Origin: Vicinamibacterales bacterium
GTDB taxonomy: Bacteria > Acidobacteriota > Vicinamibacteria > Vicinamibacterales > UBA8438
Assembly (NCBI GenBank): GCA_965263055.1
Contig: OZ253581.1
Span: forward strand, 1,071,794-1,135,793
Length of the DNA stretch: 64,000 nucleotides
Reading direction: 5' to 3'
Shown piece after piece: positions 5,549 through 36,812 of this stretch. Numbering within the stretch: the first letter of the stretch is position 1; every line of letters begins with the position of its first letter. The position numbers and the translations under genes were made by a program. The notes under the pieces are model-generated. The model was not told where the DNA came from. It ran no database searches and saw only the letters and a list, made by a program, of their open reading frames with translations.

Positions 5549-6729
5549 CACGGGATCGGCACGACGGTCGCAACGGCATGGACGACGATCCCCTCGCCGC
5601 GACCCACGGCGTCCATTCCCTCGGCCGTTTTCGCCTTGATGCTGATCGCGCCGGGCGGAATGCCGAGCGGATCGGACAGGCGCGCTCGCATCGCCTCGAT
5701 GTGCGGCCGCAGCCTGGGACGCTGCGCGATCACGACGACGTCGACGTTGCCGGGGGCGAAGCCGTGCGTGCGCACGATCGCCACCGCGCCCCGCAGCAGC
5801 TCGATGCTCGACGCGCCCTCCCACCGCGGGTCCGTGTCGGGAAAATGCCGGCCGATGTCGCCCGCCGCGGCAGCGCCGAGGAGTGCGTCGGTAACCGCGT
5901 GACAGACCGCGTCCGCGTCGGAGTGTCCCGCCAGACCGAAGTCGCACGGGATCTCGACGCCGCCCAGGATCAGGGGACGCCCGGCCGCCGTGCGGTGCGA
6001 GTCGTAACCGAAGCCAATCCGGACCATGCCGCCGCCCTCCCCGGAGAGGCGCGCCACCGCCCCGCCGACGTCCGCCGCCGTCGTCACTTTCAGGTTCGCC
6101 CCGTCTCCCTCCACCAGCCGGACCGCGTGTCCGGCCCGCTCCGCGAGCAGCGCCTCGTCGGTCGCCTCGACGCCGCTCCGTCCCAGGGCGACGGCTTCCC
6201 GCAGGACGTCGAGACGAAAGCCCTGCGGCGTCTGGGCCAGCCAGATGCGGCCGCGCGGCAGCGTCGCCGCCACCATCGGCGGCCCCTCCGTCCCGGCCGC
6301 CTCCTTGACGGTGTCGGTCACCCGAAGCGCGGGGACCGCCGCGCCCGTCTCGGCAGCGGCGTCGATGACGCGGTCTATCAGCGCTTCGGCGCAGAAGGGA
6401 CGCGCCGCATCATGCACCAGCACGATGTCGGTGCCCTCCGGCACGGCGTCGACGCCCGCCGCCACCGAGTCCTGCCGCCGGGCGCCGCCCGCGACAACCC
6501 GGAGCGGCGTCACGCACGACGCCAGCCCGGCCGGCGGCGACGCCGCGCCGTCCGCCGGGAGCACGACGATCAGCTCCGCGACGCGGTCATGCCGATCGAA
6601 CGGCGCGACCCCATACTCCAGCAGCGTCCGACTGCCGGCGAGGCGAAACTGCTTCGGCACTTCGCCGCCGGACCGGAGGCCGCGCCCTCCCGCCGCGATG
6701 ACCGCGGCTACGCGGACGGAATGATCCAT
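5548..6729 (-). CDS. ispDF: Bifunctional IspD/IspF (MEP cytidylyltransferase / MECDP synthase)
   Basis: The N-half has [11 protein letters not shown]...PKQF (IspD). The C-half has [10 protein letters not shown]...[30 protein letters not shown] (IspF). Start chosen at MDHSV (cat 6727-6729); 6762 is the alternative. Confidence 0.9.
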
Positions 6730-7355
6730 CGGCCTGTCTCTTTCCCTCCCGCGGTCTCGCACACCCGCGCCGCGCTCAGATCGAGCACCGCTTCCAGCGC
6801 CGCCGCCGGCACGGGGCGCGGGGCATACACGACGACGAGCGCCCGGACCGCGTCCGGCGTGATCATCGTCCGCGCCGAATCGGACGTCGGATTCCCGAAC
6901 GGCCCCGCCGCGTCGTACAGCGCCGGCCGCCCGCCGACATGCACGACCGGCTTGCCGATGCCGGCGTACTCGTCGCCGTCGGCGCCGCGCCGCAGCTCGA
7001 TCGGTCCGGTCACGCGGTCGAGGTCGTACAGGCCGAACGGCAACTGCGTCACGAGGGAGCAGTGGTTGCAGGCGTCGACGAGGGTGTTGATCCGGGGCCA
7101 GGGCAGGCCACGGCGGACGCGCCGCCGGAGCGCCTCGGACGACGGACGGATGCGGGTCGGGTCGATCCCGAACCGCCGGTACATGGAGCGGACCAGCGCG
7201 ACGCGCGCCTCGGCGGCGGCGCCCACGGTCAGCTCGCGCAGGTCCGGCGCCTCGCCGTCCGCCGTCGAGCGGACCGAAACTCCCTCGACGCGCAGCACCC
7301 CGAGGCGCACCACGTCGATCAGATCGTCAGCGACGCTGACGGGAGTGCCGGTCAT
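6708..7355 (-). CDS. B3/B4 tRNA-binding-domain protein (solo PheT B3/4-like)
   Basis: 215-aa ORF with a sequence pattern ([25 protein letters not shown]) resembling the PheRS-beta B3/4 domain. By-eye call only. Confidence 0.55.
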
Positions 7356-8083
7356 CGCCGCTCCAGGTCCGCCACCGTCGCGGCGATCACTTCCCGCGTC
7401 CGATCCGCGAGGCGGGTCGCATCGGCGCGCGTCAACCCGTCAGTCCGGATCGGTTCGTGGACCACCAGTGCGACATCACCCGGGCAGGTCATCAGCCGAC
7501 CCTTCAGCATGACGTGGCGCGTGCCGCTGACGGCGACCGGCACGACGGCCGCGCCCGCCTCGATCGCCAGGAAGAACAATCCGCGCTTGAACGCCGCGAC
7601 CCGTCCGTCGCGGCTCCGGGTCCCCTCCGGGAAGACGATGAGCGAGTCGCCCCGCCGGATCATCCCCGCGACGTGCGCGAGCGTCGCCGCGCCGGCGTGC
7701 GCGCGATCCACCAGGAGATGCCCGGTCCAGCGGAGGTGCCAGCCGAGCACCGGGAACCGTCCGACCGACGCCTTCGAGATGATCCGCAACTGCGCCGGGA
7801 CCGACGCGAACAGCACCGGAATGTCGTAGATGCTCTGGTGGTTCGAGACGAAGATGTACGACCGGTCGCCGTCGACGCGATCGAAGCCGCGCCCGTCGAC
7901 CCGGACGCCGGTCGTCCCCAGGATCCAGCGCGACCAGGTGCGCGCGCAGCCATGCGCGAGCCGGCCGCGCCGATCGATCAGCATCGAGGCGATCGACAGC
8001 GTCCCCAGCACGATGGTGTAGACCGAGATGGCGGGAATCAGCCAGAAGACGGTCCGCCACCAGTGGAACGGCGGGATCCGCAT
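7352..8083 (-). CDS. plsC: 1-acyl-sn-glycerol-3-phosphate acyltransferase
   Basis: 243 aa with an N-terminal TM, the HX4D motif (NHQSIYD) and the FPEGTRS motif. Confidence 0.8.
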   Translation of the reverse strand: MRIPPFHWWRTVFWLIPAISVYTIVLGTLSIASMLIDRRGRLAHGCARTWSRWILGTTGVRVDGRGFDRVDGDRSYIFVSNHQSIYDIPVLFASVPAQLRIISKASVGRFPVLGWHLRWTGHLLVDRAHAGAATLAHVAGMIRRGDSLIVFPEGTRSRDGRVAAFKRGLFFLAIEAGAAVVPVAVSGTRHVMLKGRLMTCPGDVALVVHEPIRTDGLTRADATRLADRTREVIAATVADLERR

Positions 8084-8086
8084 CCG

Positions 8087-9490
8087 TCAGGCGAGCGCCT
8101 CCAGCGCCTCCTCCACCGAGCCGACGCCCACCAGCTCGCACCCCGCGTCCGACGCGGTGGCCACGGCCTCCGCATCGGCGTTCGCCTCCGGCAGCACGCA
8201 GCGCTTGAAACCGAGTTGCGCCGCTTCCTTCACCCGCAGGTCCGCCTGGGTCGTCCCACGCACCTCGCCCCCCAGGCCTACCTCGCCGAAGATCGCGGTG
8301 CCGGGCCGGACGCCCCGGTTGCGCAGACTGGACGTCACGGCCGCGATCACCCCCAGGTCGGCGGCCGGCTCGTTCACTTGGAGGCCGCCCGCCACGTTGA
8401 CGAAGACATCCTCGCCGGCGAGGCTCAAGCCGGCGCGCTTCTCGAGCACCGCGAGCAGCAGCGACAGCCGGTTGTGATCGATCCCGCTCGCCATCCGCCG
8501 CGCCGTCCCGTAGGCGCCGGACGCCACCAGCGCCTGTACTTCGACCAGGATCGGCCGCGTCCCCTCCGCCGAGCAGAGCACCACCGAGCCGGGCACGCTC
8601 GCCGCGCGCTCCGAGAGGAACAGCCGTGAGGGGTTCGGCACCGGCACGAGGCCGGTCCCGGTCATCTCGAACACCCCCAGCTCGCTCACCGCGCCGAAGC
8701 GGTTCTTCACGGCCCGGACAATCCGGTGCGCGTGGTGCCGCTCCCCCTCGAAGTAGAGGACCGTGTCGACCACGTGCTCCAGCACCTTCGGCCCGGCCAG
8801 GCTGCCCTCCTTCGTCACGTGCCCCACGAGCAGGGTGGGCAGGTTGCGCCGCTTCGCGTTGAACATCAGGTGCGTCGCCGACTCGCGCACCTGCCCGACG
8901 CTGCCCGGCGCGGAGGTGAGCTGCAGGGAGTAGATGGTCTGGATGGAGTCGACCACCACGAGCGCCGGCGACAGCCGGTCGACCGCGTCGAGGAGCCGTT
9001 CCAGGCAGGTTTCCGCCAGCAGATAGAGCGGCGCCGACTCGCTGATGCCGAGCCGCCGCCCCCGCTCCTTCACCTGCCGCTCGGACTCTTCGCCCGACGC
9101 GTAGAGCACCGGACCGATCGTGTCCGCCACTGCGCCGGCCGACTGCAGCAGCAGCGTCGACTTGCCGATCCCCGGCTCGCCCCCCACCAGCACCACCGAG
9201 CCGGCGACGATGCCGCCGCCCAGCACCCGGTCGAACTCGCCGAAGCCGCTCGTGAAGCGCGCCGCCTGCTCCACGTCCACGTCGGCGTAGCGGCGCACCT
9301 CGGCCGGCTCTACCGACGCCGCGCCGCCGTAACGTCCCGGAACGCCGGCGGCGGGGGCGGGCGCCTCCGGCTCCTCGACCATCGTGTTCCAGGCGCCGCA
9401 GTCGCCGCACTGCCCGGTCCACTTGCGCGACTGGCCGCCGCACGACTGGCAGGCGAACACCGTCCGCGCGCCGGTCTTCGCCCTGGGCAT
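8087..9490 (-). CDS. radA: DNA repair protein RadA/Sms
   Basis: 467 aa with an N-terminal zinc finger CQSCGGQSRKWTGQCGDCGAWNT, Walker A GEPGIGKST and a Lon-like C-terminal domain. Confidence 0.95.
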   Translation of the reverse strand: MPRAKTGARTVFACQSCGGQSRKWTGQCGDCGAWNTMVEEPEAPAPAAGVPGRYGGAASVEPAEVRRYADVDVEQAARFTSGFGEFDRVLGGGIVAGSVVLVGGEPGIGKSTLLLQSAGAVADTIGPVLYASGEESERQVKERGRRLGISESAPLYLLAETCLERLLDAVDRLSPALVVVDSIQTIYSLQLTSAPGSVGQVRESATHLMFNAKRRNLPTLLVGHVTKEGSLAGPKVLEHVVDTVLYFEGERHHAHRIVRAVKNRFGAVSELGVFEMTGTGLVPVPNPSRLFLSERAASVPGSVVLCSAEGTRPILVEVQALVASGAYGTARRMASGIDHNRLSLLLAVLEKRAGLSLAGEDVFVNVAGGLQVNEPAADLGVIAAVTSSLRNRGVRPGTAIFGEVGLGGEVRGTTQADLRVKEAAQLGFKRCVLPEANADAEAVATASDAGCELVGVGSVEEALEALA

Positions 9491-9510
9491 CTGTGGTTGA
9501 ACGGGAAAGC

Positions 9511-10668
9511 TCAGCGATTATACGTCCGCCCGATCCGTGCACCGACGCGGCAGAGCACCTCGTGCGGCACCGTGCCGATCGCCCCGGCAACGTCGGCGGC
9601 CCCAATCCGCGCGCCCGCCTGCTCCCCCAGGATCACCACGTCATCGCCCGGACTGGCCGCCACCGCGGTCACGTCGACCGTCAGGGAATCCATGGCGACG
9701 GTCACGATATCGGCCCGTGCGCCGTCGATCAGGACCGACCCGCGTTCCGCGAGACGCAGATCCAGCCCGTCGGCGTAACCTGCCGGGACGATCGCAATGC
9801 GCATCGGCCGGTCGGCGACGAACCGCGCGCCGTAGCCCGCCGACTCGCCCGGCCGCATCCCCTTGACCGCGACGACGCGGCTTCGGAGCGACATCACCGG
9901 CCGGAGGTCGAGGTCGGCCTCGAGCGGCGGCGGCGCAACGCCGTACAGCAACAGGCCGGGACGGACCGCGTCGTACCAGGTGCGCGGGTCGCACAACAGC
10001 GCGGCGCTGTTCGCGGCGTGCCACCGGACACCGGACAGTCCGAGGGCGCCGGCCGACGCGCGGACCGCTTCGAACCGCTCGCGCTGCTCCTCGAACAGCG
10101 GATGGCCGGCCATCTCGGCGGTGGCGAAGTGGGTGTAGACCGCGTCAACCGCCAGGTGCGGCGATCCGACCACGTCCGGAAGGGTCTGGCGCAGGTTGTC
10201 GTCGCGGAAGCCGAACCGGTGCATGCCGGTGTCGATCTTCAGGTGCACGTGCAGCCGCAGGCGACGCGCCGCGGCCGTCTGCGCCAGCGCCCGCGCCGCG
10301 CCGGGCGATGAGACGGTCGGCGTCAGGTCATGGTCGAAGAGCCCCGCCAGGTCGCTTACGCTCAGGGCGCCGAACACCAGGATCGGGGCGGTTACGCCGG
10401 CCGCGCGCAGTTCGATCCCTTCCTCGATGTCGGCGCAGGCCAGCAACGGCATCCGCGGCGCCGGCGCGCCGCTGTCCACCGCGGCGCGTTCGATCGCCAG
10501 CGCGACCGGCGCGGCGCCATGACCGTACGCGTTCGCCTTGACGACCGCGATGACGCGGGGCGGGGCGGGGCGTGCCGCCGCGCCGCCGCCCGCCAGATGG
10601 CGGAGGATCGCGCGGTAGTTGTGGACCAGGGCGTCGAGATCGACAGTGGCGTGGGTCGGACGGATCAC
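9511..10668 (-). CDS. alr: Alanine racemase
   Basis: 385 aa with the PLP-lysine motif VVKANAYGHG and a typical C-terminal beta-domain. Confidence 0.9.
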   Translation of the reverse strand: MIRPTHATVDLDALVHNYRAILRHLAGGGAAARPAPPRVIAVVKANAYGHGAAPVALAIERAAVDSGAPAPRMPLLACADIEEGIELRAAGVTAPILVFGALSVSDLAGLFDHDLTPTVSSPGAARALAQTAAARRLRLHVHLKIDTGMHRFGFRDDNLRQTLPDVVGSPHLAVDAVYTHFATAEMAGHPLFEEQRERFEAVRASAGALGLSGVRWHAANSAALLCDPRTWYDAVRPGLLLYGVAPPPLEADLDLRPVMSLRSRVVAVKGMRPGESAGYGARFVADRPMRIAIVPAGYADGLDLRLAERGSVLIDGARADIVTVAMDSLTVDVTAVAASPGDDVVILGEQAGARIGAADVAGAIGTVPHEVLCRVGARIGRTYNR

Positions 10669-25093: not shown

Positions 25094-25987
25094 CTAGATC
25101 GGTTCGACGTAGACGGTCAGGACACGCACGCCCAACTCGCGCGCGTCGTCCCCCACGCCCAACTCGGAGGGGACGAAGGTCTGATCGACGAGCAGCTCCA
25201 GTCGGACCACGTCGTCGGATCCGAGCTCGGCCGTCGTGAGCGTTCGATCAATCATCACGGGGGCGGAGGTGCGGAGGGACAGTTCCTCCAGCATCTGCTC
25301 GCCGATCCGGAGACTGAACTGCTGCGGCGTATCGAACACATCGGGTCGTCCTGCCACCTCCAGCATCAGGCGCGCGTCGCCCCTGGGATTCTGGAAAGAG
25401 ACCACGCCGTGGCCGGTAGACCAGCGCCAGGATACCTCGCCGTTCGGCTGAGACTCGACCCCGTGCCAGCCTTCCTCGTAGACCAGGAAGCTGCTCTCGT
25501 GTTGCGGCGTGAACGTGATGGAGGCGGTGCGGTAGGCGTTCTGGCCGATATGGTCACCTGCGAGCGCCAACCGCTCACCGGTCGACGCCAGGTGCAACCC
25601 GACGGCAATCTCTGCTTCCCCGATATACGGATAGAGCGGCGCCATGATCCGGCGCGTGTACCAGATGGTCTGTCCCGGCTCCCACTCGCTCGTCGGCGTC
25701 GCCGGCCGATGATCGTCACTCCAGATCCGCTCGCCGTTGTTGTCGAGCACCTGGGCGAAGACGGTGTAGTCGTCCGTCATCGGCACGAGGTCCGGCAATA
25801 CATCGAATCTAAACGTCATCTCGAGCGGTCCGCCGACCGGCACGCTCGTCCGGTCCAACTGCAGGTTGACGCGCGCTACCGGCGAACCGGACGCTCCGCC
25901 GCCACAGGCGGTGGCGGGCAGTAGCGACGCCGCCAGCACGATCGCTGCGGCTACGGTCCGTAGTCCGCTGATGAAGTGGTGCCGCAT
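25094..25987 (-). CDS. Lipoprotein of unknown function
   Basis: Start at MRHHFISGL (cat 25985-25987) with lipobox LLPATAC. The beta-rich body has no recognised motif. It is the last gene of a minus-strand GT-C/GT2 operon. Confidence 0.55.
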   Translation of the reverse strand: MRHHFISGLRTVAAAIVLAASLLPATACGGGASGSPVARVNLQLDRTSVPVGGPLEMTFRFDVLPDLVPMTDDYTVFAQVLDNNGERIWSDDHRPATPTSEWEPGQTIWYTRRIMAPLYPYIGEAEIAVGLHLASTGERLALAGDHIGQNAYRTASITFTPQHESSFLVYEEGWHGVESQPNGEVSWRWSTGHGVVSFQNPRGDARLMLEVAGRPDVFDTPQQFSLRIGEQMLEELSLRTSAPVMIDRTLTTAELGSDDVVRLELLVDQTFVPSELGVGDDARELGVRVLTVYVEPI

Positions 25988-26053
25988 CAACAAGGAGCAT
26001 ACCATTGGCTCCACGACGCTGGAGCTTGTGAAACCAAGGGATCGCGCGCGACG

Positions 26054-26734
26054 TCAGAAGCGGTACTTCAGAAGTGTCCAGACCGCCTGGAAGAAGTCCT
26101 TCCAGGAGATCTTCTTCCCCTCCGCAAAACTCCGCCCCTGGTACCGGATTGGCACCTCGTGAATCGGGATCCCGCGCTTCAGGATCTTGGCGGTAATCTC
26201 CGGCTCGAAATCGAAACTGTTCGACACGGTCTCGATCTGCTGCAGTAACGTCCGGTCAATCAGCTTGTAGCACGTCTCCATGTCGGTAAGCGACGAGCCG
26301 TAACAGCAGTTGGTAAGCCAGGTCAGCAGGCGGTTCCCGACGCGGTGACGGATCGCCATAGCCGGGCGCCCGGCCGCTAGACGCGAGCCGTACACCACCT
26401 GCGCCTTCTCCTTCACCGCAGCGTCGAGCAGCCCAGCGTAGTCGGCCGGATCGTACTCGAGGTCGGCATCCTGCACGATCACGTAGTCGCCGGTGGCGCG
26501 AGCGAAACCGGCCCTGAGCGCCGCCCCCTTCCCCTGGTTGGCGGGCTGCAGCAGCAGGGTCATCCCGTCCCCCTCGCGCGCCGCCCGCTCCCGCAGCAGC
26601 TCGCGCGTCCCGTCGGTGGAGCCGTCGTCCACGACGATCACCTCCGTATCCAGATCGACCGCCGCAACACGGTCGAGCAGTTCGATGATCGTCGCCCGTT
26701 CGTTATAGACCGGGATCACAATGGAAAGACGCAT
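26054..26734 (-). CDS. Family-2 glycosyltransferase, polyprenyl-phosphate sugar synthase-like (Dpm1/ArnC/GtrB type)
   Basis: From [26 protein letters not shown]...[11 protein letters not shown]...FDFEPE. About 226 aa and soluble. Start is cat 26732-26734. Confidence 0.85.
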
Positions 26735-26795
26735 GGCCAGGAGTGCAAGACGCCGCAGACGGTCTACTGCCCCCGTGGTGACATCGAAGACCGGA

Positions 26796-28739
26796 TCAAG
26801 GAGCTGCTCGACGGGCCGCAAATCGACCGCACGGGTCCGGCGCAGCCGGGTGGCAGGCGCCGCCGAGGTCTCCGGGACCATCAAGTAGGCCGCCACGGCC
26901 GGCCTGCCGGGCATCCCCGACGCGCCGGAGATCGATGTAGTCGATCTCGAAGCCCTGTCTGCCGCGCACGCGGAACTCCACGTCCCGGAAGCTCCGGTCG
27001 GCATGGAACGACAGTGTCAGGAACGATGCCCTCGACCCGGACACTCGGAAAGCGCGTCTAGCGATCTGGTTGCCGCCCCGAGAGGAAACGACCTCCAGGA
27101 CTCCGGCTGTCGGTACTCCCGGCCGCACGGCCGCCACGATCTCGTACGCGCCCGGATCGAGGGAAACCCACGGTCCGGCCACGGCGAACGCGTGCTCCCG
27201 GTCCTGCCGGCACACAAGACCGTTACTGGCGTGCGATTGCGGATAAGCCGTGCAGCGTCTCGGCATGTGCTCCGCCTCGTAACGGCGCAGCGGCGATGTC
27301 GTTTCGCGCCCCAGGGGATCATCGACTGGCAGCAAGAACAACGCGGCGACGGCGGTGGCGAGAGCAGGCAGGCACCGCCACCGGCGCAACCAGCCCGCGG
27401 CGACCAATGCCAGAGCCGCGCAGGCCCAGACGACGTTTGGGGCATACCCGATGTTGCCGTGCGGACCAAGCTTCGGCAACGACAACATTATCGGGACAGG
27501 AAAGAGGGATGGCTGCCACAGGTCAGGAGCGAACAGCCCATTAAAGAGCCGCTGCGGGGCGGGAATCCAGGAGACCGCGAGCGCCGCCTGATACGCGATC
27601 CCGGCGAGCAGGACCAGCCCTACGGCGTACGGCGAGCGCCACCCCCGCAACTCGCGAACGGCGATCCCAACAGGAACGAGCCAGAGCCACATCGCCGACC
27701 AGCCGAAGCGCCCGGCAGGGCCCACGTGGCCACCGTAGGGAATCTGCTGCAGCGCGTTCGGGACGACGACCGACGCGTACAGCAGCAGCCAAGGCAGCAC
27801 CAGCGGATGCCGGCGGCGGATCATCCAGCCCAGCGCCACGAGGCCAGACAACAGGAGCGGCTGCGACACGAACATTCCGTGCACCTGATCGAGATGCTGA
27901 CCCAGTACGAGCTCGATTGCGCGAGCAACATCAAAGTTCAGCTCCCCACCACCGCGGCCACCCAGGAGATCTCCGAAGTACGTCCAGGAGAAGGTGGCGA
28001 ACAGGGCGGGTCCAGCCAGGAAGAGCATGGCGAACGTGGCGTACATCACGGGTGTAAACCGCACCCGGTGGCGCCACAATTCGCCAGCTCCCATCGCCGC
28101 GAGCACTGCCGTGGGCGCGTAATACTTCACATGCAGCCAACACAGGAGTCCCGCGAAGAGCCAGTAGACGCACCAGGAACCGGCGTGCGCGCGCGGGCCA
28201 GTTCGCCACAACCAGCTCGCCAATGCGAAGATCGCCACCCCGCCGGCAAGGTCCGGGTAGAGCTGCGACGAGCCGAACACGACCGGGCTGCACGCCAGCA
28301 CGCCGAGCGTGGCGAGCATCGCGTTGATGGGGTCGAGGACCGTGCAGCACCAGCGATAGACTGCCACGCCGAGGGTCAGCGTCAGCAGCAGGACGAGCGA
28401 GACTCGCGCCCCGGCGGTGCCGTCCAACCCGAAGGGAATTGCCAGAATGACGCCGAGTCCCGGCATGTGCTGCGGTCCACCAGTGCGCATCAAGGCGTGT
28501 GGCTGCATGGGAGCCGGGAAGATCTCCCCGTTGATTGCGTCGTGCTGGTAGTTGTTGCGGACATCGAAGTCGAAGTCGCGCAGTACGCTGGCTGCAATGA
28601 TCAGGTAGTGCGGCTCGTCACCGTCGACGGCAAGCGGCTGGACTGTCGCGAGAACGGCCGCGGGCACGACCACTAGTACGGCCAACAGCACTAGGAGTGG
28701 CAGTCGTGGGAGCCGTCGGCGCTCGGCGGACCTGTACAT
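26796..28739 (-). CDS. Large polytopic membrane protein, GDEPHY-motif family (paralog of 23062-25071)
   Basis: Start at [19 protein letters not shown] (cat 28737-28739). It shares [38 protein letters not shown] and [39 protein letters not shown] with the paralog. Confidence 0.6.
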
Positions 28740-28843
28740 TACGATAGGATACCGTGGCCTATGATCCACCGCTAGCCAGCCAGCGGTGGGGGTGCACGTC
28801 CCTCCGAGGCGGTGAAAGAGGGGCAGGTGCTGCCGTAAGGGAG

Positions 28844-29527
28844 ATGCACCTTCATGCCGGCCTGGAGGCCGGCGCACCAGGGGCCGGCGCACATCACGGC
28901 CGGTCTGGAGGCCGACGCACCAGGGGCCGGCGCACCGTCGCGGTCGCACTGGCCGCCCTTGCCCTGACCGGCGCGCGTAGTGCGGCAGGCGCGGAGTCGT
29001 GGAGCGCCACTTCCGGGGACGTGCACGTTCGCTGCCGCCTCACGGTCGGCGGCAGCTTCGATGTAGTCACATCCGCACTCTCCGGAACGCTTGAGCGCGC
29101 GACGCCGGACGGCGCGGACTACTCCGGCGAACTCCGGGTAGACCTCGCGACACTCGACAGCGGCATCGGGTTGCGGAACTCCCATCTCCGCGACAACTAC
29201 CTCGAGGTGGAACGAGGCCCGGAGTTCCGGCATGCCGTGCTCTCGGACATCGTGCTCGACGATCCGCTGCCCGCCAGCGCCGGCCGCCACGAGACGGCGT
29301 TCTCGGGAACACTCTCCCTGCACGGCGTGGAGCGCCCGGTCGAAGGCGAGGCGGAGCTGCGCCGCCGCGACGGTCGGATGCAGGTGGAGGCGACGTTCTC
29401 CATCAGCCTGGAAGCGTTCGACATCCCGCCGCCGCGGTACCTGGGTGTCGGCGTCCGCGACACCGTGGAGATCACCGTCACGTTCGATGCGGCGCGCGCT
29501 GATGAGCCGTCGGGCGCCACGCCATGA
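28844..29527 (+). CDS. YceI-like periplasmic (polyisoprenoid-binding-like) protein
   Basis: DLATLDSGIGLRNSHLRDNYLEVERGPEFRHAVL and the overall beta-barrel pattern are typical of the YceI family. The N-region of the signal peptide is encoded by two tandem repeat units, so the start is uncertain. Confidence 0.65.
   Translation: MHLHAGLEAGAPGAGAHHGRSGGRRTRGRRTVAVALAALALTGARSAAGAESWSATSGDVHVRCRLTVGGSFDVVTSALSGTLERATPDGADYSGELRVDLATLDSGIGLRNSHLRDNYLEVERGPEFRHAVLSDIVLDDPLPASAGRHETAFSGTLSLHGVERPVEGEAELRRRDGRMQVEATFSISLEAFDIPPPRYLGVGVRDTVEITVTFDAARADEPSGATP
28855..28935. repeat. Two tandem REP-like units (28855-28892 and 28898-28935)
   Basis: TGCCGGCCTGGAGGCCGGCGCACCAGGGGCCGGCGCAC and GGCCGGTCTGGAGGCCGACGCACCAGGGGCCGGCGCAC, separated by 5 nt. 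Confidence 0.7.
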
Positions 29528-30684
29528 CCTGGTCCGGAGGAAGGCGCGCCGCCGCGCGCATCGCGCTCACCGCCGCGTCGTTGCTGGCGGCATGGGGCGC
29601 CGGGCCCGTGTTCGCCGAACCGACGTTCCTGTCCAGGCAGTACCCACGCTGCACCGCCTGTCACTACTCGGAGTCGGGCGGCGGGCTGTTGACGCCGTAC
29701 GGACGGTCGCTGTCGCGGGAGGAGATCTCGACGTTCGGCCGCCAGGGCGCCGGCGTGGACCCGACGCAGCCGGCCGCCGACGAGGAAGGCTTCCTCTTCG
29801 GCGCCCTCGGGAGCGAGAGCCCGCTGCAGCTCGGCCTCGACATCCGGCCCTCGCATCTGGGCGTCAACGTGCCCGGCCGAACCCTGGCCGACCGCAATTT
29901 CCTCATGACCCTCGATCTGCAAGCGGCCTGGCGTCGCGACCGCTGGACCGCCTACGGCACGGTCGGACGCCAGCCCCGTGCCAGCGGCGGCCGGGTGGTG
30001 TCGTACGAGCACTGGGTCTCCTACCAGGTTGCCGACGGCGTGAGCGTGCGCGGCGGACGGTTCCTGCCGGCCTACGGCGTCCGGTTCGCCGACCACACGT
30101 CGTTCACCCGCGAGCGGCTCGACCTCGCCCAGGACGATCAGATCTACGGCGTCGAGGTGGGCGTGTCGACCGATCGGACGCTGCTACAGGTATCCGCCGG
30201 CCCGGGACGCGCCGAATCACTGATCGACGGCGACGGACGTAGCGCGTTCACCGGAAGCGGCCGGTTCCAGTTCGACGTCGGACCCCGCACCGTCCTCGCG
30301 GGATCCGTCCGCCACCGCGGCGCGTCGGACGCCGGCCCCTCACGCACCGGAGGCGGGCTCTCCTTCGGCTACGCCCCGACCGCCTGGCTCACCACCTGGA
30401 CGCATGCGGACGTTCAGCACCAGGCGCTGCGGACGAGCAGCCGCTCCTACATCGTCGCCAACCAGACGTCGGTCGAGGCGGTGCGCGGCCTCTGGCTCCG
30501 CGTGTCGCCGCAGGTGCGCTGGACGGATCGCGACCCGCGGGGCGAAATCCGCCGCATGGTCTACGGCCTGGACTTCTATCCACGCACCCACTGGCACGTC
30601 AACGTCTCGTACTACCGCGACCACCTCCCGTTCAACGGCCAGCGCGTGCAGACGCTGCTTGCCCAGTTGCACCTCTATCTGTAA
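29524..30684 (+). CDS. Putative outer-membrane beta-barrel protein with N-terminal CxxCH heme-attachment motif
   Basis: 386 aa. A signal peptide (…GAGPVFAEP) is followed by YPRCTACHYSESGGGLLTPYGR. After that come many alternating-hydrophobicity strands, ending LLAQLHLYL. It overlaps the YceI gene by 4 nt. Confidence 0.5.
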   Translation: MTWSGGRRAAARIALTAASLLAAWGAGPVFAEPTFLSRQYPRCTACHYSESGGGLLTPYGRSLSREEISTFGRQGAGVDPTQPAADEEGFLFGALGSESPLQLGLDIRPSHLGVNVPGRTLADRNFLMTLDLQAAWRRDRWTAYGTVGRQPRASGGRVVSYEHWVSYQVADGVSVRGGRFLPAYGVRFADHTSFTRERLDLAQDDQIYGVEVGVSTDRTLLQVSAGPGRAESLIDGDGRSAFTGSGRFQFDVGPRTVLAGSVRHRGASDAGPSRTGGGLSFGYAPTAWLTTWTHADVQHQALRTSSRSYIVANQTSVEAVRGLWLRVSPQVRWTDRDPRGEIRRMVYGLDFYPRTHWHVNVSYYRDHLPFNGQRVQTLLAQLHLYL

Positions 30685-30695
30685 CGCTAGCTTCC

Positions 30696-31166
30696 GTGAC
30701 GACAACCCTGCGCTGCTTCCTATCACTTCCGCTGGTTCTGGTTCTCGCGCTGGGTGTCGCCGCCTGCGGTGCGGATTCCCCGCCCGCGCCGACCACCCCG
30801 ACGCCGACTACCCCGACTCCGCCGCCACCGGCGCCGGATCCCAACGAATTGATGCCCACGTTGTCGAGCATCCAGAGCCTCGTGTTCACCCCGCAATGCG
30901 TCATGTGTCACGGGGACGACGTAGCGGAGGCCGGTCTCAATCTGGAAGAAGGGACGTCGTTCGCGTCGCTCGTCAACGTGCCCAGCACTCAGGTGGCGCT
31001 CGATCTCGTAGAGCCGAACGACGCGGAGAACAGCTATCTGATCCACAAGCTCGACGGCCGCGACGGCATCGTCGGCGACCGGATGCCCTACGATGCCGAG
31101 TTCCTCTCCGAGGCGGACATCGACGTCATCAAGCAGTGGATCAAAGACGGCGCGCAGGACAACTGA
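30696..31166 (+). CDS. Lipoprotein with single CxxCH; Planctomycete-type cytochrome c (PSCyt1)-like domain
   Basis: 156 aa with lipobox LGVAAC and a Pro/Thr linker. It then reads IQSLVFTPQCVMCHGDD..AGLNLEEG...NSYLIHKL...DRMPYDAEFLSEADIDVIKQWIKDGA. Confidence 0.6.
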   Translation: MTTTLRCFLSLPLVLVLALGVAACGADSPPAPTTPTPTTPTPPPPAPDPNELMPTLSSIQSLVFTPQCVMCHGDDVAEAGLNLEEGTSFASLVNVPSTQVALDLVEPNDAENSYLIHKLDGRDGIVGDRMPYDAEFLSEADIDVIKQWIKDGAQDN

Positions 31167-31257
31167 CCGCCGAGCTGCACCACTCACGCAAACTCATGTG
31201 ATTATTGTTGCTGCTTGCGCTGGTTCAGCACAGGCCCCGCACCACAAGTTAGCGTAG

Positions 31258-33210
31258 ATGGCACCGCTGCAACGTGCTCACGTCGTCGCCTTTGGCGCCG
31301 TTCTACTGGTCGCTATCTGGCTGCGCGCACCGCAGATCTCCACAGGCCTACCATACTTCTATGATGCGGACGAAACGACCCAGTTCAACCGGTTGGTGCG
31401 GATGGTCCAGACCAACGACTACCACCCTTACTTCTTCCATTACCCGTCGCTGGACCTCTACTTGCGGATGCCCGCGTTGGCGGGTGGCTTCCTGTGGTCG
31501 GCACGAGAGGGCGACATAAGTTCCATTCACGAGATCGTCAGGATCGACATTATCGCACCCGACCGGATCGCCAGAACGGCATCGCATCCGCGCATCGTCA
31601 TGTGGGTGCGCTCCGTCACTCTGTTCTTCAGCCTGCTGATGCTCGTTGCGACGGTAGGAATTGCGCGCAGGCTCACTGCCTCACCTTGGGTGGCGGTCCT
31701 AGCGGGGGTGTTCGTGGCGTGCTCCCCACCGCTGATCGAGGACTCGGAAAAGATCGGCGTCGACACGCTGATGGCAGCAATGTGCGTCGTGACCGTGTGG
31801 CTGTCGTTGCGCACCATGGAGCAGCCGAGCGTGGGGCGAGCGGCACTGGCAGGACTAGCGGCGGGGCTCGCCATATCGAGCAAGTACAACGCCATGCCGA
31901 TCGTCATCGTGCCAGCGCTGGCTTGCCTGCTCTCGGTCCGCTGCTCGCCTGGCATGCTGACGGCGGCGTTGGGTCTACCGGCAGTCGGGTTTTTCGCCGG
32001 GACTCCGTACGGTTTGTTCTATCCTGCCGACCTCCTCAACGGAATGGCGGACGGGATCACGTACTACTCACTCCCTGGAAGCTCCGGTCCGCGCATCGAG
32101 CCTGGCTGGCCGCACGCAGCGCGCTTTCTCGGTTGGTTGTCAAGGAATGCGATGGGTGTCTCAGTCACGCTGGCCGGCATCACCGGCGCCGCCCTGCTGC
32201 CGATCGCCGACCGACACCGCCGCGCGGCGATCGTGATGCTGGCGTTCCCACTGGCGTTCGGCGTGTTTATGGTCAATCAGCACGCCGCCTTTTTCCGCAA
32301 CATGCTCGTATTGATCCCGTTCTTCGCCGTTGCCGCAGCATGGGCGGCGGAGCGGCTGGCAAAGCACCTGTCCCGGCAACCGTGGATGCCGTTTGGGGGA
32401 AGGGCGGTCATGCCAATGCTCGTCTTCCTCCTTCTCGCACAGCCGGTAGTCATGGCTATCAACCTGTGGCAGGAGACAGGGACGGCGCCTGAGAGCCGAC
32501 GCCTGGTCAGCGCGTGGCTGGCAGAGGCCGTTAGTCCGGAGACGGAAACGGCAATCACCGAAGAACTGCGGCTACCAGCGGCAGACTATCGTACTACGGG
32601 CATCACGATGGCACGCACCGATCAGTTGACCGATCCGAAGCGGCTGTTTCTGGACGGCTATGACCGAATTGTCGTCGGTCCGAACTTCGAGCTCCCCGCG
32701 CACGCCACGGACCTGTTGCAGGTACACCGGATCTTTGCGGGCGATCGCTACCAGACCTACATTCCGCGCAATCCGGAAATAACGATCTACAACCTGCCTG
32801 CCACGCTCGCGTACCACCCAGGGGTGCGTGAGCTGGTCGCACGCGACCCACGCTACGAGCTGACCGACGGCGTCGTGCGCACGCGCATCGCGCGGCTCGC
32901 GCTCGATGGTCTGGGCTCGGGAACAGTCCAAACGCCGCACTCAACCATCACACTTGATCTCCGCACGCCGTGGCCGTCGCAGTCCTGTCGACTCGAGCTG
33001 CCCCGTTGGCAATCACCCGAGCTTTGCGCTGACCTCCCGCCCGGACACCGGGAGACGCGATCCGTCACGATCCCCACGGATGTACTGGCCGGACAGAGTT
33101 GGTTGTGGATCGTCGTCCGCCGCGTCCACCTGGATCCCGATTCCACGCGGGAGCGCAGGCTCCGACTCGGGATGGTGGTGGACGCGCTGACCGTAAGTCC
33201 GGCGCCGTAG
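31258..33210 (+). CDS. GT39/ArnT-like (GT-C) polytopic glycosyltransferase-like protein
   Basis: 650 aa. The N-terminal TM is followed by the loop motif YFYDADETTQFNRLVRM. There are about 11 TM helices and a roughly 230-aa C-terminal soluble domain. Confidence 0.55.
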   Translation: MAPLQRAHVVAFGAVLLVAIWLRAPQISTGLPYFYDADETTQFNRLVRMVQTNDYHPYFFHYPSLDLYLRMPALAGGFLWSAREGDISSIHEIVRIDIIAPDRIARTASHPRIVMWVRSVTLFFSLLMLVATVGIARRLTASPWVAVLAGVFVACSPPLIEDSEKIGVDTLMAAMCVVTVWLSLRTMEQPSVGRAALAGLAAGLAISSKYNAMPIVIVPALACLLSVRCSPGMLTAALGLPAVGFFAGTPYGLFYPADLLNGMADGITYYSLPGSSGPRIEPGWPHAARFLGWLSRNAMGVSVTLAGITGAALLPIADRHRRAAIVMLAFPLAFGVFMVNQHAAFFRNMLVLIPFFAVAAAWAAERLAKHLSRQPWMPFGGRAVMPMLVFLLLAQPVVMAINLWQETGTAPESRRLVSAWLAEAVSPETETAITEELRLPAADYRTTGITMARTDQLTDPKRLFLDGYDRIVVGPNFELPAHATDLLQVHRIFAGDRYQTYIPRNPEITIYNLPATLAYHPGVRELVARDPRYELTDGVVRTRIARLALDGLGSGTVQTPHSTITLDLRTPWPSQSCRLELPRWQSPELCADLPPGHRETRSVTIPTDVLAGQSWLWIVVRRVHLDPDSTRERRLRLGMVVDALTVSPAP

Positions 33211-33955
33211 CGTTCGCTGGCGACCGAGTTCTCGATAGTGCCGTCCACGCCGCGACCGTTGTACCTCGCCATTGAGGATGGCCAGAACGCGACGACCGGG
33301 CGAAGCGCAAATAGCGTCGGGCGTCAGGCGGCCAGGGAGGTCGAGCAGGTCTAATTCTGGGTGACTATGGATTTAATGCCAGCCTATCCGGACTTTCCGT
33401 CGCGGCGGCGGCCATTCGCCGAGCGTCCGCCAGTACGACACGGCAAGTCATTTATATAGTTTGAGGTAGTCAGGCCAGTACACCCACGCTCCCCATTCTG
33501 TACCCCACAAGGTGAACGGGACCGCATAGTGCCACAGACGCCTTCCGCGAGCAAACCAGACCTGGGCAACCGTGGTACAGGGATCCAGATCAACCGCGTC
33601 GATCCGCCAGATCCGAACCACTGCGACAGACGACGACGCGGCAACATCGAGTCAGAACGGATCCACTCTTGAGGATCCGAGCTCACTCACCAGATCACGA
33701 AAGCACACGAAAACCGGCCACGGAAAAAGCTGGCTCCTGACCGGTTATAGTGTCAGGAAGCAGCTTACTCAACGTGCCACATTGGGACTGGCAGGGGGCT
33801 CCGCCCCTCGACCCCCGGACAGAGATACCGTGCGGGCTGGGGATTCAGGCCCGGCCGTCGCCGGGTCGCTGAGGTTGCCACAAATGGGAAATTTACGGTG
33901 GCCACCAACATGGTCACCCGGCGTTGCACCGCCGTTGCGGCCGGCGCCGGGTTCG

Positions 33956-35098
33956 ATGGCCTCGGCAGCCCGTTCGTGGTCGTCGAGCCGCCACACGAGC
34001 GGGGGACGCCGCGCGGTCGAAGTCGCCGACAGGGCCACCCATCAGAAGCGCTACGGTCCGGCGTCGCGGCTGCTGCATGCGCTGGCGCTCGAGCGCCCCT
34101 TCGTCGCGGAGACCTGGCTCGACGTCGAGGAACTGCTGCACGGCCGCAATCTACCCGCAGCGGACGGCGGCGCGCATGTCTTCGTTACCGGTTTGGCACG
34201 CGCCGGCACCACGATGTTGATGCGGCTGCTACACGCCTCGGGCCGGTTCGCGTCGCTCAGCTACCGCGACATGCCATTCGTCCTGGCGCCGAACCTCTGG
34301 GCCTCGCTCACGCGACGGTCGCGGCGCGACCTCCCGGCGCAGGAACGGGCGCACGGCGACGGTGTCGTCGTCGATGCCGACAGTCCGGAAGCGCTCGACG
34401 AGGTCTTCTGGCGCGTCGTCTGCGGGAGCGACTACATCGGACCGAACACGCTGTCGCCGATGGAGGCGGACCGCGACGCGATGGATCGCTTCCGCCGCTA
34501 CGTCGCCCTGGTTCTGAAGCGGTATGGGTCCGACCGATACCTGTCGAAGAACAACAACAACCTGCTGCGGCTGCCGTCGTTACGCCGCGCGTTCCCGAAT
34601 GCGCACTTGGTTGTCCCGTTCCGCGATCCGCTGCGCCAGGCGGCGTCACTCCTGACGCAACACCGGCGCTTCTCCCAACAGCAGCGGGACGATCCGTTCA
34701 CCCGCCGCTACATGGCCTGGCTCGTGCATCACGAGTTCGGTCTCGACCACCGCCCGTTCGCGTTTGCGGGCAGCAACGCGCCCGCAGATGCGGACCGCGA
34801 TGACCCGGCGTACTGGCTGCAGCAGTGGGTCGCCGCCTACTCGCACGCGCTGGAGTGCGCGGACGAGACCGCCATCAATCCGATATTCGTCAGCTACGAA
34901 TGGATTTGCGCCGAGCCGGAGCGGGCTTGCGAGGCGCTGGCGTCACGTCTCGATCTTCCCCCGACGGCGCTCACGTTCGCGCCCCGCCGCTCCCCGACCG
35001 ACACGCCGGCAATCGCCGACCGCCCGCTGGTCGGCCGGGCGTGGGAGCTGTACGCGGCGCTCGACGAGCGGAGCCGGCGAGATGCGGCGACGCCATAG
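33956..35098 (+). CDS. Sulfotransferase-family protein
   Basis: PAPS 5'-phosphosulfate loop VFVTGLARAGTTMLMRLL and a later RYLSKNNNN segment. Start chosen at ATG 33956, within the longer track ORF (33572), so it is uncertain. Confidence 0.65.
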   Translation: MASAARSWSSSRHTSGGRRAVEVADRATHQKRYGPASRLLHALALERPFVAETWLDVEELLHGRNLPAADGGAHVFVTGLARAGTTMLMRLLHASGRFASLSYRDMPFVLAPNLWASLTRRSRRDLPAQERAHGDGVVVDADSPEALDEVFWRVVCGSDYIGPNTLSPMEADRDAMDRFRRYVALVLKRYGSDRYLSKNNNNLLRLPSLRRAFPNAHLVVPFRDPLRQAASLLTQHRRFSQQQRDDPFTRRYMAWLVHHEFGLDHRPFAFAGSNAPADADRDDPAYWLQQWVAAYSHALECADETAINPIFVSYEWICAEPERACEALASRLDLPPTALTFAPRRSPTDTPAIADRPLVGRAWELYAALDERSRRDAATP

Positions 35099-35693: not shown

Positions 35694-36812
35694 TTACTGT
35701 AGCGACTCCACGCCATCGACGCGGTGCAACGACGACCGATCGAGCGGCGGTCGCGGCCGGGCAACGACCGCATGCTGCGAGTCGTCCGGGGTGCCGGTCG
35801 TCGGTCCTGGGGCATCCTGGCGGGTCGTTCTCGACGGCCGATTGATCCATACGGCGGTCGGCAAGGTTTCTGGGCGTGGTGGTCCGCTGACGAATCGCTC
35901 CGGATGCGCGGCGTAGGCCACGAGGCGGGTGCGGTGACGCAGGTCGAAGATCGCCGGCGCGCGGCCGTAATGCACGTCGGCCGGCGTGAGATAGCTGAGG
36001 CCGCTGTGGTGGTGGGCATCATTGTACCAAGCCAAGAGGTCGTGGCAGATGGCGCGCGCGTGTTCGAGTGCGCCGAACCGCTTCGGAAACTCCGGCCGAT
36101 ACTTGAAGGTGCGAAACTGCGCCTCCGAGAACGGATTGTCATTGCTCACGCGCGGCCGCGAGTGGCTGGCCGCGATGCCGAGGTCGGAGAACAACAGCGC
36201 GACGAGCTTGCTGCGCATGGGCGCGCCGCGGTCGGCGTGAATCGTGAGCTGCTGCGGCTGGATACGCTGCTTCGCGCAGGTCTGCTCGATCAAGCGCTCG
36301 GCCAAGTGGGCGCTCTCCTTGACCGCCACCATCCAGCCCACGACGTAGCGGCTGAAGAGGTCGAGGATCACATACAGCGAGTAGTAGAGAGAGGGAACCG
36401 GGCCCTTCAGCTTGGTGATGTCCCAGGACCAGACCTGATTCGGCGCCGTCGCGACGAGCTCGGGTTTGACGTACGCCGGATGCCGCACCTGGTCGCGGCG
36501 CTCCCGCACTTCGTCGGCCTCGGCGAGCACCCGATACATCGTGCGCGGGGAGCAGAGGTAGGTCTGCTCCTCAAGCAACGTCGCATAGACTTCGGCGGGC
36601 GATTGATCGACAAACCGCGCGCTGTGCAACGTGTCGCGGACGGCTCGCCGTTCGGCAGGGACCAGCGCGCGCGGCGACGGCGCGCGGGGCCGCCGGGGCG
36701 TCGCCGGCGGCGTGGGCCGGCGCCGCCGATAGAGCGACGCGCGGGACACGCCGATGCTCTGACACAACGCCGACGTCTCGCCCTTCGCCGTGACGGCCTC
36801 GATCGCGCGCAT
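35694..36812 (-). CDS. IS3-family transposase OrfB (HTH_21 + rve integrase core, DDE)
   Basis: LCQSIGVSRASLYRRRR, WSWDITKL, IHADRGAPMRS and SNDNPFSEAQFRTFKYRPEF. The frame stays open upstream to the A-run at 36869-36876, which is -1 relative to orfA. Confidence 0.8.
   Translation of the reverse strand: MRAIEAVTAKGETSALCQSIGVSRASLYRRRRPTPPATPRRPRAPSPRALVPAERRAVRDTLHSARFVDQSPAEVYATLLEEQTYLCSPRTMYRVLAEADEVRERRDQVRHPAYVKPELVATAPNQVWSWDITKLKGPVPSLYYSLYVILDLFSRYVVGWMVAVKESAHLAERLIEQTCAKQRIQPQQLTIHADRGAPMRSKLVALLFSDLGIAASHSRPRVSNDNPFSEAQFRTFKYRPEFPKRFGALEHARAICHDLLAWYNDAHHHSGLSYLTPADVHYGRAPAIFDLRHRTRLVAYAAHPERFVSGPPRPETLPTAVWINRPSRTTRQDAPGPTTGTPDDSQHAVVARPRPPLDRSSLHRVDGVESLQ

Follow-up and report, generated by a model that had tools for sequence, protein, structure and literature searches.

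Organization of the module

We analyzed a 64,000-nucleotide (nt) stretch of the genome of a Vicinamibacterales bacterium (GCA_965263055.1, contig OZ253581.1, positions 1,071,794-1,135,793 of the forward strand), referred to below as the window, with coordinates counted from its first letter. It contains a module of three genes which encode, in this order, a YceI-like protein (ORF1), a beta-barrel protein with an N-terminal CxxCH motif (ORF2) and a small lipoprotein with a CxxCH motif of its own (ORF3). An earlier note on this DNA had described the three open reading frames (ORFs) as sharing one orientation and being tightly linked. Their coordinates (28844-29527, 29524-30684 and 30696-31166, all on the + strand), the overlap and the gap were all confirmed. 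The stop codon of the YceI gene and the start codon of the barrel gene share ATGA at 29524-29527, a 4-nt overlap. The barrel gene ends with TAA (30682-30684) and is followed by an 11-nt spacer, CGCTAGCTTCC, and by the GTG start codon of the lipoprotein gene at 30696. An alternative start codon for ORF1 is the GTG at 28754. A scan of 28400-31500 for promoters and terminators found none. The best match is a locus designated L002, at 93% identity, and the genome of the window is Vicinamibacterales-like. The features of the module are as follows, with the basis of each assignment in brackets.

28844..29527, + strand: secreted YceI-family lipocalin (Pfam YceI match, aligned signal peptide, synteny)
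29524..30684, + strand: putative fused monoheme cytochrome-porin, Cyc2-like, 386 amino acids (AlphaFold, Foldseek, hhalign to Cyc2)
29524..29616, + strand: signal peptide of the barrel protein, residues 1-31, cleavage after VFA (sequence reading; predicted helix at residues 5-25)
29617..29733, + strand: putative heme-binding segment AEPTFLSRQYPR-CTACH-YSESGGGLLTPYGRSLSREEIS (CxxCH at nt 29650-29664; invariant residues)
29824..30678, + strand: 16-strand porin barrel, residues 101-385, with the C-terminus LHLYL (DSSP on the AlphaFold model)
30696..31166, + strand: putative PSCyt1-type lipoprotein cytochrome c, 156 amino acids (lipobox Cys24 at nt 30765-30767; CxxCH at nt 30897-30911)

The middle protein is a porin-like barrel with a conserved heme motif

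The signal peptide of ORF2 has an n-region and an h-region, ends in VFA and is followed by EPTF at the mature N-terminus. The AEP at this site is conserved, and E32 and P33 are invariant among close homologues (alignment A1). The CxxCH motif (CTACH) occupies residues 43-47. An AlphaFold model built with an alignment of 89 sequences (alignment A5) has a mean predicted local distance difference test (pLDDT) score of 86, a predicted template modelling (pTM) score of 0.81 and 16 strands as assigned by DSSP; it supersedes a model made with close homologues only (pLDDT 59). In the model the turns on the periplasmic side are short, and a single loop of 26 residues (181-206) is long and L3-like. The best match in Foldseek was OprP (2o4v, E-value 1.5e-10), with OprO (4rjw) at rank 6, and PorB and OmpM1 were matched as well. 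Weak Pfam Porin_O_P matches were found in some distant members of the family. The prediction that the middle protein is a beta-barrel with a signal peptide thus holds, as the 16-strand model and the porin matches support it.

A search for close homologues of the barrel protein returned 923 sequences, and the few with a source name are proteins from metagenome-assembled genomes (MAGs) of Acidobacteria that are labelled hypothetical. An exhaustive profile search identified 1,404 clusters (50% identity) at an E-value of at most 1e-3, 692 of them at an E-value of at most 1e-10. The family profile gave noise only against PDB sequences (E-value about 1), an exact-sequence look-up of the window protein returned no record, and we found no literature on this barrel family.

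A single N-terminal CxxCH is present in 304 of 308 full-length family members, reaching down to 23% identity. The four members that do not have it start downstream of the heme segment or do not contain the segment, and look truncated or mis-started. Because of this conservation the CxxCH of the barrel protein is not a chance motif, and the N-terminal c-type heme motif proposed in the earlier note is borne out. Across alignments at 22-89% identity the residues C43, C46, H47, G52, G60, M128, G148, G178, G185, H191, G322 and H356 are invariant. M128, H191 and H356 are invariant in alignment A5 and H383 is present in more than 90% of its sequences; judged by this conservation, all four are candidate sixth heme ligands.

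An alternative is that ORF2 is an ordinary substrate porin of the OprO/OprP kind, in which the CxxCH serves as a metal site or forms a disulfide and the YceI and lipoprotein genes merely co-travel. The best structural matches are indeed plain porins, and Porin_O_P is recognized in distant members. However, the full C-x-x-C-H, including the histidine, is kept in the 304 of 308 members, the flanking A-x-P-x-F and LTP[F/Y]GR are common to the proven cytochrome Cyc2, and the recurrent third partner of the module is always a heme protein, PSCyt1-type or b562-type. A plain porin with a CxxCH that does not bind heme is unlikely, and we give this explanation as a whole very little probability.

The heme segment resembles that of Cyc2

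The earlier note had considered a single-heme barrel fusion to be undescribed. This is incorrect, because Cyc2, a fused cytochrome-porin iron oxidase, has exactly this architecture: its signal peptide is followed by one CXXCH and by a barrel of 16 strands for which OprO/OprP served as modelling templates (Keffer et al., PMC8406198). The window protein was compared with the definition of Cyc2 given by Keffer et al. (2021) and McAllister et al. (2020). It has a signal peptide, a single CXXCH, the length of at least 365 amino acids (386 in the window) and an OprO/OprP-like 16-strand barrel. ORF2 gave no match to Pfam or NCBIfam, and genuine Cyc2 proteins likewise give none, so these libraries cannot settle membership of Cyc2.

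As a reference, Cyc2 genes were picked from metagenomes by the presence of FARQT, three residues and CxxCH, which yielded 78 full-length proteins of 362-532 amino acids. An hhalign comparison of the barrel family with these 78 proteins, signal peptides kept, gave a probability of 95.6% (E-value 1e-8) over 46 N-terminal columns. With the signal peptides removed, the probability was 84.6% (E-value 6.8e-6) over 30 columns. Controls against an unrelated CxxCH domain gave 8-14%. Anchored on CxxCH, the consensus of the family is A.AfPEflRHGYprCTACHySPsGGGLLTPYGRSLS and that of Cyc2 is A.AVPSFARQTGqpC.ACHT.fPeLTpfGRrFKL. The spacing ahead of the heme site (A-x-P-x-(F/M)-x-R) is equal in both, and both have LTP(F/Y)GR after it, although this motif is shifted by three residues through a GGG insertion in the window family. 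The heme segment is specifically similar to that of Cyc2 and, judging from these alignments, the two families probably share an ancestor in this segment.

A YceI gene precedes the barrel gene in two phyla

ORF1 matches Pfam YceI (PF04264) with an E-value of 4.6e-16 (60 bits; cut-off 23.7). It has a cleavable signal peptide, ending at approximately SAAGA before ESW, which aligns with the signal peptides of its homologues. The signal peptide and the YceI motifs are conserved in comparison with the Bdellovibrionota partners described below, and by both profile and secretion ORF1 is YceI-like. The YceI partners of the two phyla are 28-29% identical to each other.

The conservation of the module was surveyed in 81 Acidobacteriota loci with barrel proteins at 46-93% identity; the related-locus search, run with a motif-homogeneous alignment subset, kept 80 loci, all from Acidobacteriota. 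A distant branch (about 25% identity) from Bdellovibrionota/Oligoflexia, in which every named member is annotated as hypothetical, was reached by other routes than this search and examined at seven loci. The YceI gene lies directly upstream of the barrel gene in 78 of the 81 Acidobacteriota loci, with varying flanks, and in 5/7 Bdellovibrionota loci; one of the three exceptions in Acidobacteriota (L042) is cut by a contig end. The link between YceI and the barrel is thus conserved across two phyla, and we found no paper that describes it. A window-type lipoprotein gene adjoins the barrel gene in about 45 of the 81 Acidobacteriota loci, nearly always downstream and mainly in the clade at 63% identity or more. 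A heme protein is encoded in six of the seven Bdellovibrionota loci, ahead of YceI. In L202, L203, L206 and L207 it is a cytochrome c of the PSCyt1 type, whereas L204 and the P0335 locus have a b562-like protein. L205 has neither a YceI nor a heme-protein partner. The lipoprotein of the window is homologous to the partner in L202 (E-value 7e-8), which is encoded two genes upstream of the barrel gene. The three-gene module described in the earlier note is real and is kept across loci of other genomes. Since YceI is near-constant upstream of the barrel gene and the cytochrome only frequent, YceI and the heme porin make up the core, to which the small cytochrome is a frequent third member.

Several loci have additional features. 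The b562-like match in L204 (4744-5325) is sub-threshold (E-value 6e-4), and that in the P0335 locus is an unmarked precomputed Pfam match (E-value at most 1e-5); in the latter locus a 280-amino-acid protein with a faint PSCyt1 match occupies the usual position of YceI. L203 (4280-5458) encodes a 392-amino-acid lipoprotein with two PSCyt1/CBB3-type CxxCH domains around two IPT/TIG domains, an enlarged cytochrome partner. In an Acidobacteria MAG (L079, approximately 6087-9611), the barrel is followed by a 1,174-amino-acid protein that contains several CxxCH motifs of the PSCyt type, and an upstream ORF of 468 amino acids has two CxxCH motifs. On one Vicinamibacterales chromosome (OZ220718.1) the whole YceI-barrel-lipoprotein region occurs twice in near-identical form (L013 and L014, about 31-42 kb and 6.38-6.39 Mb), which could reflect a duplication or an assembly repeat. 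In L001 (6274-7260) and 12 related loci, a gene for a TlpA/ResA-like thioredoxin fold (WCPDC; Pfam AhpC-TSA/Redoxin) lies just upstream of YceI; this arrangement is specific to one Vicinamibacterales clade, in which a protein with a weak metallo-beta-lactamase-fold match is also encoded just upstream of YceI. Two sponge MAGs labelled Gemmatimonadota and Aminicenantes (L025 and L048) carry barrels that are 70-74% identical to that of the window, and these labels more likely reflect binning or labelling noise than a wide distribution.

Ubiquinone-8 or other polyisoprenoids have been found bound to YceI proteins, and the family is paired, both genetically and in function, with cytochrome b561 in the BcnA-LcoA defence against lipid peroxidation (PMC9113575). 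In Cbp2D, YceI and c-type cytochrome domains are fused (PMC8981238). Because of the BcnA-LcoA pairing and the Cbp2D fusion, a redox pairing of YceI with a heme protein has a precedent. By analogy with other family members, the YceI protein of the window may bind a quinone or isoprenoid.

The module could then be an outer-membrane counterpart of BcnA-LcoA, in which YceI would shuttle ubiquinol or an isoprenoid from one membrane to the other. The small cytochrome would supply the porin heme, which would reduce or oxidize this carrier, and lipid peroxyl radicals or reactive oxygen species would thereby be quenched at the outer membrane. YceI, with its 4-nt overlap and its position in the 78/81 and 5/7 loci, is the most constant partner of the barrel, the pairing of YceI with a cytochrome has an experimentally supported role in defending the envelope against peroxidation (PMC9113575), the hosts are aerobes, and AhpC/thioredoxin-like genes lie nearby in one Vicinamibacterales clade. 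On the other hand, these thioredoxin-like neighbours are confined to that clade, no cytochrome b561 gene adjoins the module, and it is an assumption of this explanation that a porin-embedded c-type heme reacts with a lipocalin-bound quinone. We regard a role in peroxidation defence as unlikely.

The lipoprotein cytochrome

ORF3 has the lipobox VAAC (Cys24), a Pro/Thr linker, a CxxCH (CVMCH) at residues 68-72 and a conserved Met-Pro further downstream. Its Pfam matches are marginal: PSCyt1 (PF07635) with 22.9 bits against a gathering cut-off of 22 (1.3e-4), and Cytochrom_C with 22.4 bits against 21.3 (3e-4). Together with the lipobox, these matches agree with the previous description of the downstream gene as encoding a PSCyt1-type lipoprotein with a Pro/Thr linker. 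The domain resembles PSCyt1 in that C-x-x-C-H opens it, a Met-Pro follows downstream and a WI..GA motif is found at the C-terminus. It differs in being a stand-alone lipoprotein of 156 amino acids, whereas PSCyt1 is the N-terminal module of large PSD/DUF1553-type proteins.

The PSCyt1 partners in Bdellovibrionota carry the canonical CxxCH. Among the orthologues of ORF3, CxxCH forms occur in several sub-lineages beside near-identical forms with CxxHH, for example CVGCHGPS and CVTHHGPS. This interleaving among close relatives suggests repeated switching between CxxCH and CxxHH in the lipoprotein. No relevant description of CXXHH as a heme motif turned up in the literature. The CxxHH form may hold heme by a single thioether or without a covalent link, or may have another ligand. 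Such toggling in a partner lipoprotein is a natural experiment on the requirements of heme attachment.

Genomic surroundings

The module lies between glycosylation genes at 25094-28949 (- strand) and 31258-35098 (+ strand). This cluster encodes a GT2 glycosyltransferase, a large polytopic membrane protein that has no Pfam match, a PMT_2-type glycosyltransferase and a sulfotransferase. The flanks of the window are not common to other genomes that carry the module, and the first 15 kb of the window contain housekeeping genes. An integrase/transposase gene (Pfam rve, rve_3, HTH_32) is found at 35694-36812 on the - strand, about 4.5 kb downstream of the module. A coding-potential screen of the window identified no further c-type cytochrome or CxxCH ORF, with imperfect sensitivity, as the lipoprotein ORF itself was missed.

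A putative electron-transfer unit of the cell envelope

We favour, with moderate confidence, the interpretation that the module is an electron-transfer unit of the envelope, built around a Cyc2-type outer-membrane single-heme cytochrome-porin with a YceI-bound quinone and a small cytochrome as partners. The analysis shows the arrangement of the genes, the fold, the conserved heme motif, its segment's specific resemblance to that of Cyc2 and the synteny across phyla, whereas for this scheme we infer the attachment of heme, the roles of the partners, the direction of electron flow and the substrate. After export, the N-terminal segment of the barrel protein (AEPTF...CTACH...LLTPYGR) would receive one covalent heme. 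The heme segment would be located at or inside the 16-strand OprP/OprO-like barrel. The outer membrane would thereby contain a redox centre that could exchange single electrons with soluble or membrane-borne species on the outer side. The first periplasmic partner would be the secreted YceI lipocalin, whose gene is translationally coupled to the barrel gene. The second, in many lineages including that of the window, would be the small membrane-tethered PSCyt1-type cytochrome c. Candidate substrates are Fe2+ in solution, the substrate of Cyc2, and oxidants or lipid radicals that would be reached via a YceI-bound quinol.

A number of results weigh against this interpretation. The Cyc2 motif PXFAR[Q/K][T/Y] (AXPXFAR[Q/K][T/Y]) is absent from the window protein, which reads AEPTFLSRQY at this position with only A, P and F matching; the consensus of the family is AFPEMxRHGY, and real Cyc2 proteins have FARQT followed by three residues before CxxCH. 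The PXL motif that stands four residues past CXXCH in Cyc2 is also absent (CH-YSESGGGLL in the window, CH-x-S-P-x-GGG-x-L in the family). A profile hidden Markov model (HMM) that we built from the 78 FARQT-type Cyc2 proteins gives the window protein 10.8 bits, at the N-terminus only, and barrel-only and global hhalign comparisons with Cyc2 detected no similarity (probability 3.7% for the barrels).

The partners and the genomic context add to these points. A cytochrome gene of the window type does not adjoin the barrel gene in about 35 of the 81 Acidobacteriota loci, and in the Acidobacteriota loci in which a strong lipoprotein match is missing no same-strand CxxCH ORF was found beside the module, except in one or two. 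As for the lipoprotein itself, 40 of 42 orthologues from species-representative genomes and 104/120 protein clusters have CxxHH in place of CxxCH. The earlier note had pointed to a second CxxCH here and had counted non-conservation of a CxxCH in homologues as evidence of a chance motif. The motif is present in the window protein but is not conserved in full, which by the note's own standard would speak against it; however, the CxxHH orthologues keep the first cysteine, the histidine and the Met-Pro. No genes for cytochrome c maturation (Ccm) are present among the approximately 30 annotated ORFs in the 1-37 kb part of the window, the 37-64 kb part lying outside the annotation. Finally, Vicinamibacteria and Bdellovibrionota are, to our knowledge, not known as iron oxidizers.

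We read the barrel protein as having a Cyc2-like architecture and lying outside Cyc2 as currently defined, that is, as a member of an unnamed sister family. The module might nevertheless be a functional Cyc2 system, in which the barrel protein would oxidize dissolved Fe2+ at its porin heme and pass the electron to the lipoprotein cytochrome c, as Cyc2 does to Cyc1, and on to a terminal oxidase, with YceI as an accessory. The sole experimentally characterized fused monoheme cytochrome-porins (A. ferrooxidans Cyc2, Cyt572 and Cyc2PV-1) oxidize iron (PMC8406198), the heme segment is specifically similar to that of Cyc2, and the adjoining small c-type cytochrome mirrors the cyc2-cyc1 arrangement (PMC10654088). 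Some neighbours are weakly related to metals: L202 has Nramp, L204 and the P0335 locus have NifU/Nfu, and L206 has a repressor of the CsoR type. Against iron oxidation, both defining motifs of Cyc2 are missing and homology of the barrels is undetectable, the strict coupling to YceI is absent from canonical Cyc2 loci (0/120), and many loci lack the cytochrome partner or have a CxxHH form of it. The function of the divergent Cyc2 proteins of Cluster 3 is itself held to be uncertain by Keffer et al. (PMC8406198). As far as we know, the host clades are aerobic heterotrophs or predators. An Fe(II) oxidase at this locus is, in our view, doubtful.

A more far-reaching reading would be that the barrel proteins are a distinct, unnamed family of fused monoheme cytochrome-porins that is obligately coupled to YceI. 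No earlier case would then be known in which a heme of the outer membrane is connected to a soluble carrier of quinone or isoprenoid in the periplasm. This reading is tentative, and we consider it possible rather than probable. If true, it would represent a new route by which electrons move between the outer membrane and the quinone pool of respiration or antioxidant defence. Abundant Acidobacteria of soil and sea and predatory Bdellovibrionota would use this route, with a small cytochrome partner that repeatedly toggles between CxxCH and an undescribed CxxHH.

Cyc2 is the main current genetic marker for neutrophilic iron oxidation and is recognized by motif and HMM filters. The window family, which is common in Vicinamibacteria and has about 1,400 clusters (50% identity), fails the motif filters and would probably fail the HMM filters. 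If it oxidizes iron, metagenomic surveys would undercount the capacity for iron oxidation; if it does otherwise, the fusion of a porin with a single heme is a general design and not one restricted to oxidizing iron. For YceI, a very widespread lipocalin family, a concrete and testable role is offered by its constant pairing with the barrel.

Comparison with known systems

In MtrCAB, MtoAB and PioAB a separate decaheme cytochrome is threaded through a 26-strand barrel (PMC8406198). The window module resembles these systems in combining an outer-membrane beta-barrel with c-type heme for crossing the outer membrane, and differs in that a single heme motif is fused to a 16-strand barrel. A conduit of the MtrB/PioB type is excluded by the number of strands and of hemes.

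The Cellvibrio proteins Cbp2D and Cbp2E, which combine YceI-like X158 and c-type cytochrome domains, differ from the window module in being secreted multidomain proteins with carbohydrate-binding modules which feed polysaccharide monooxygenases, with no porin involved (PMC8981238). BcnA-LcoA and YceI-YceJ are similar to the module in that the genes for a secreted YceI lipocalin and for a heme protein of the membrane are coupled, with a proposed redox cycling of the lipocalin-bound quinone (PMC9113575). The heme partner of BcnA is an inner-membrane di-heme b561, whereas that of the window YceI would be an outer-membrane c-type heme porin together with a small cytochrome; neither the window nor the related loci that were examined have a cytochrome b561 gene adjoining the module.

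In comparison with Cyc2, the window family is shorter (340-410 versus 420-530 amino acids), it is found in Vicinamibacteria and Bdellovibrionota and not in known iron oxidizers, and it is coupled to a YceI gene, which was next to canonical Cyc2 in none of 120 loci. Beyond the heme segment, the two families have in common a signal peptide, one CXXCH no more than about 15 residues into the mature protein, and a small c-type cytochrome that is often encoded alongside. They also share a 16-strand barrel with OprP/OprO-type models, the same two templates that were reported for Cyc2 (PMC8406198).

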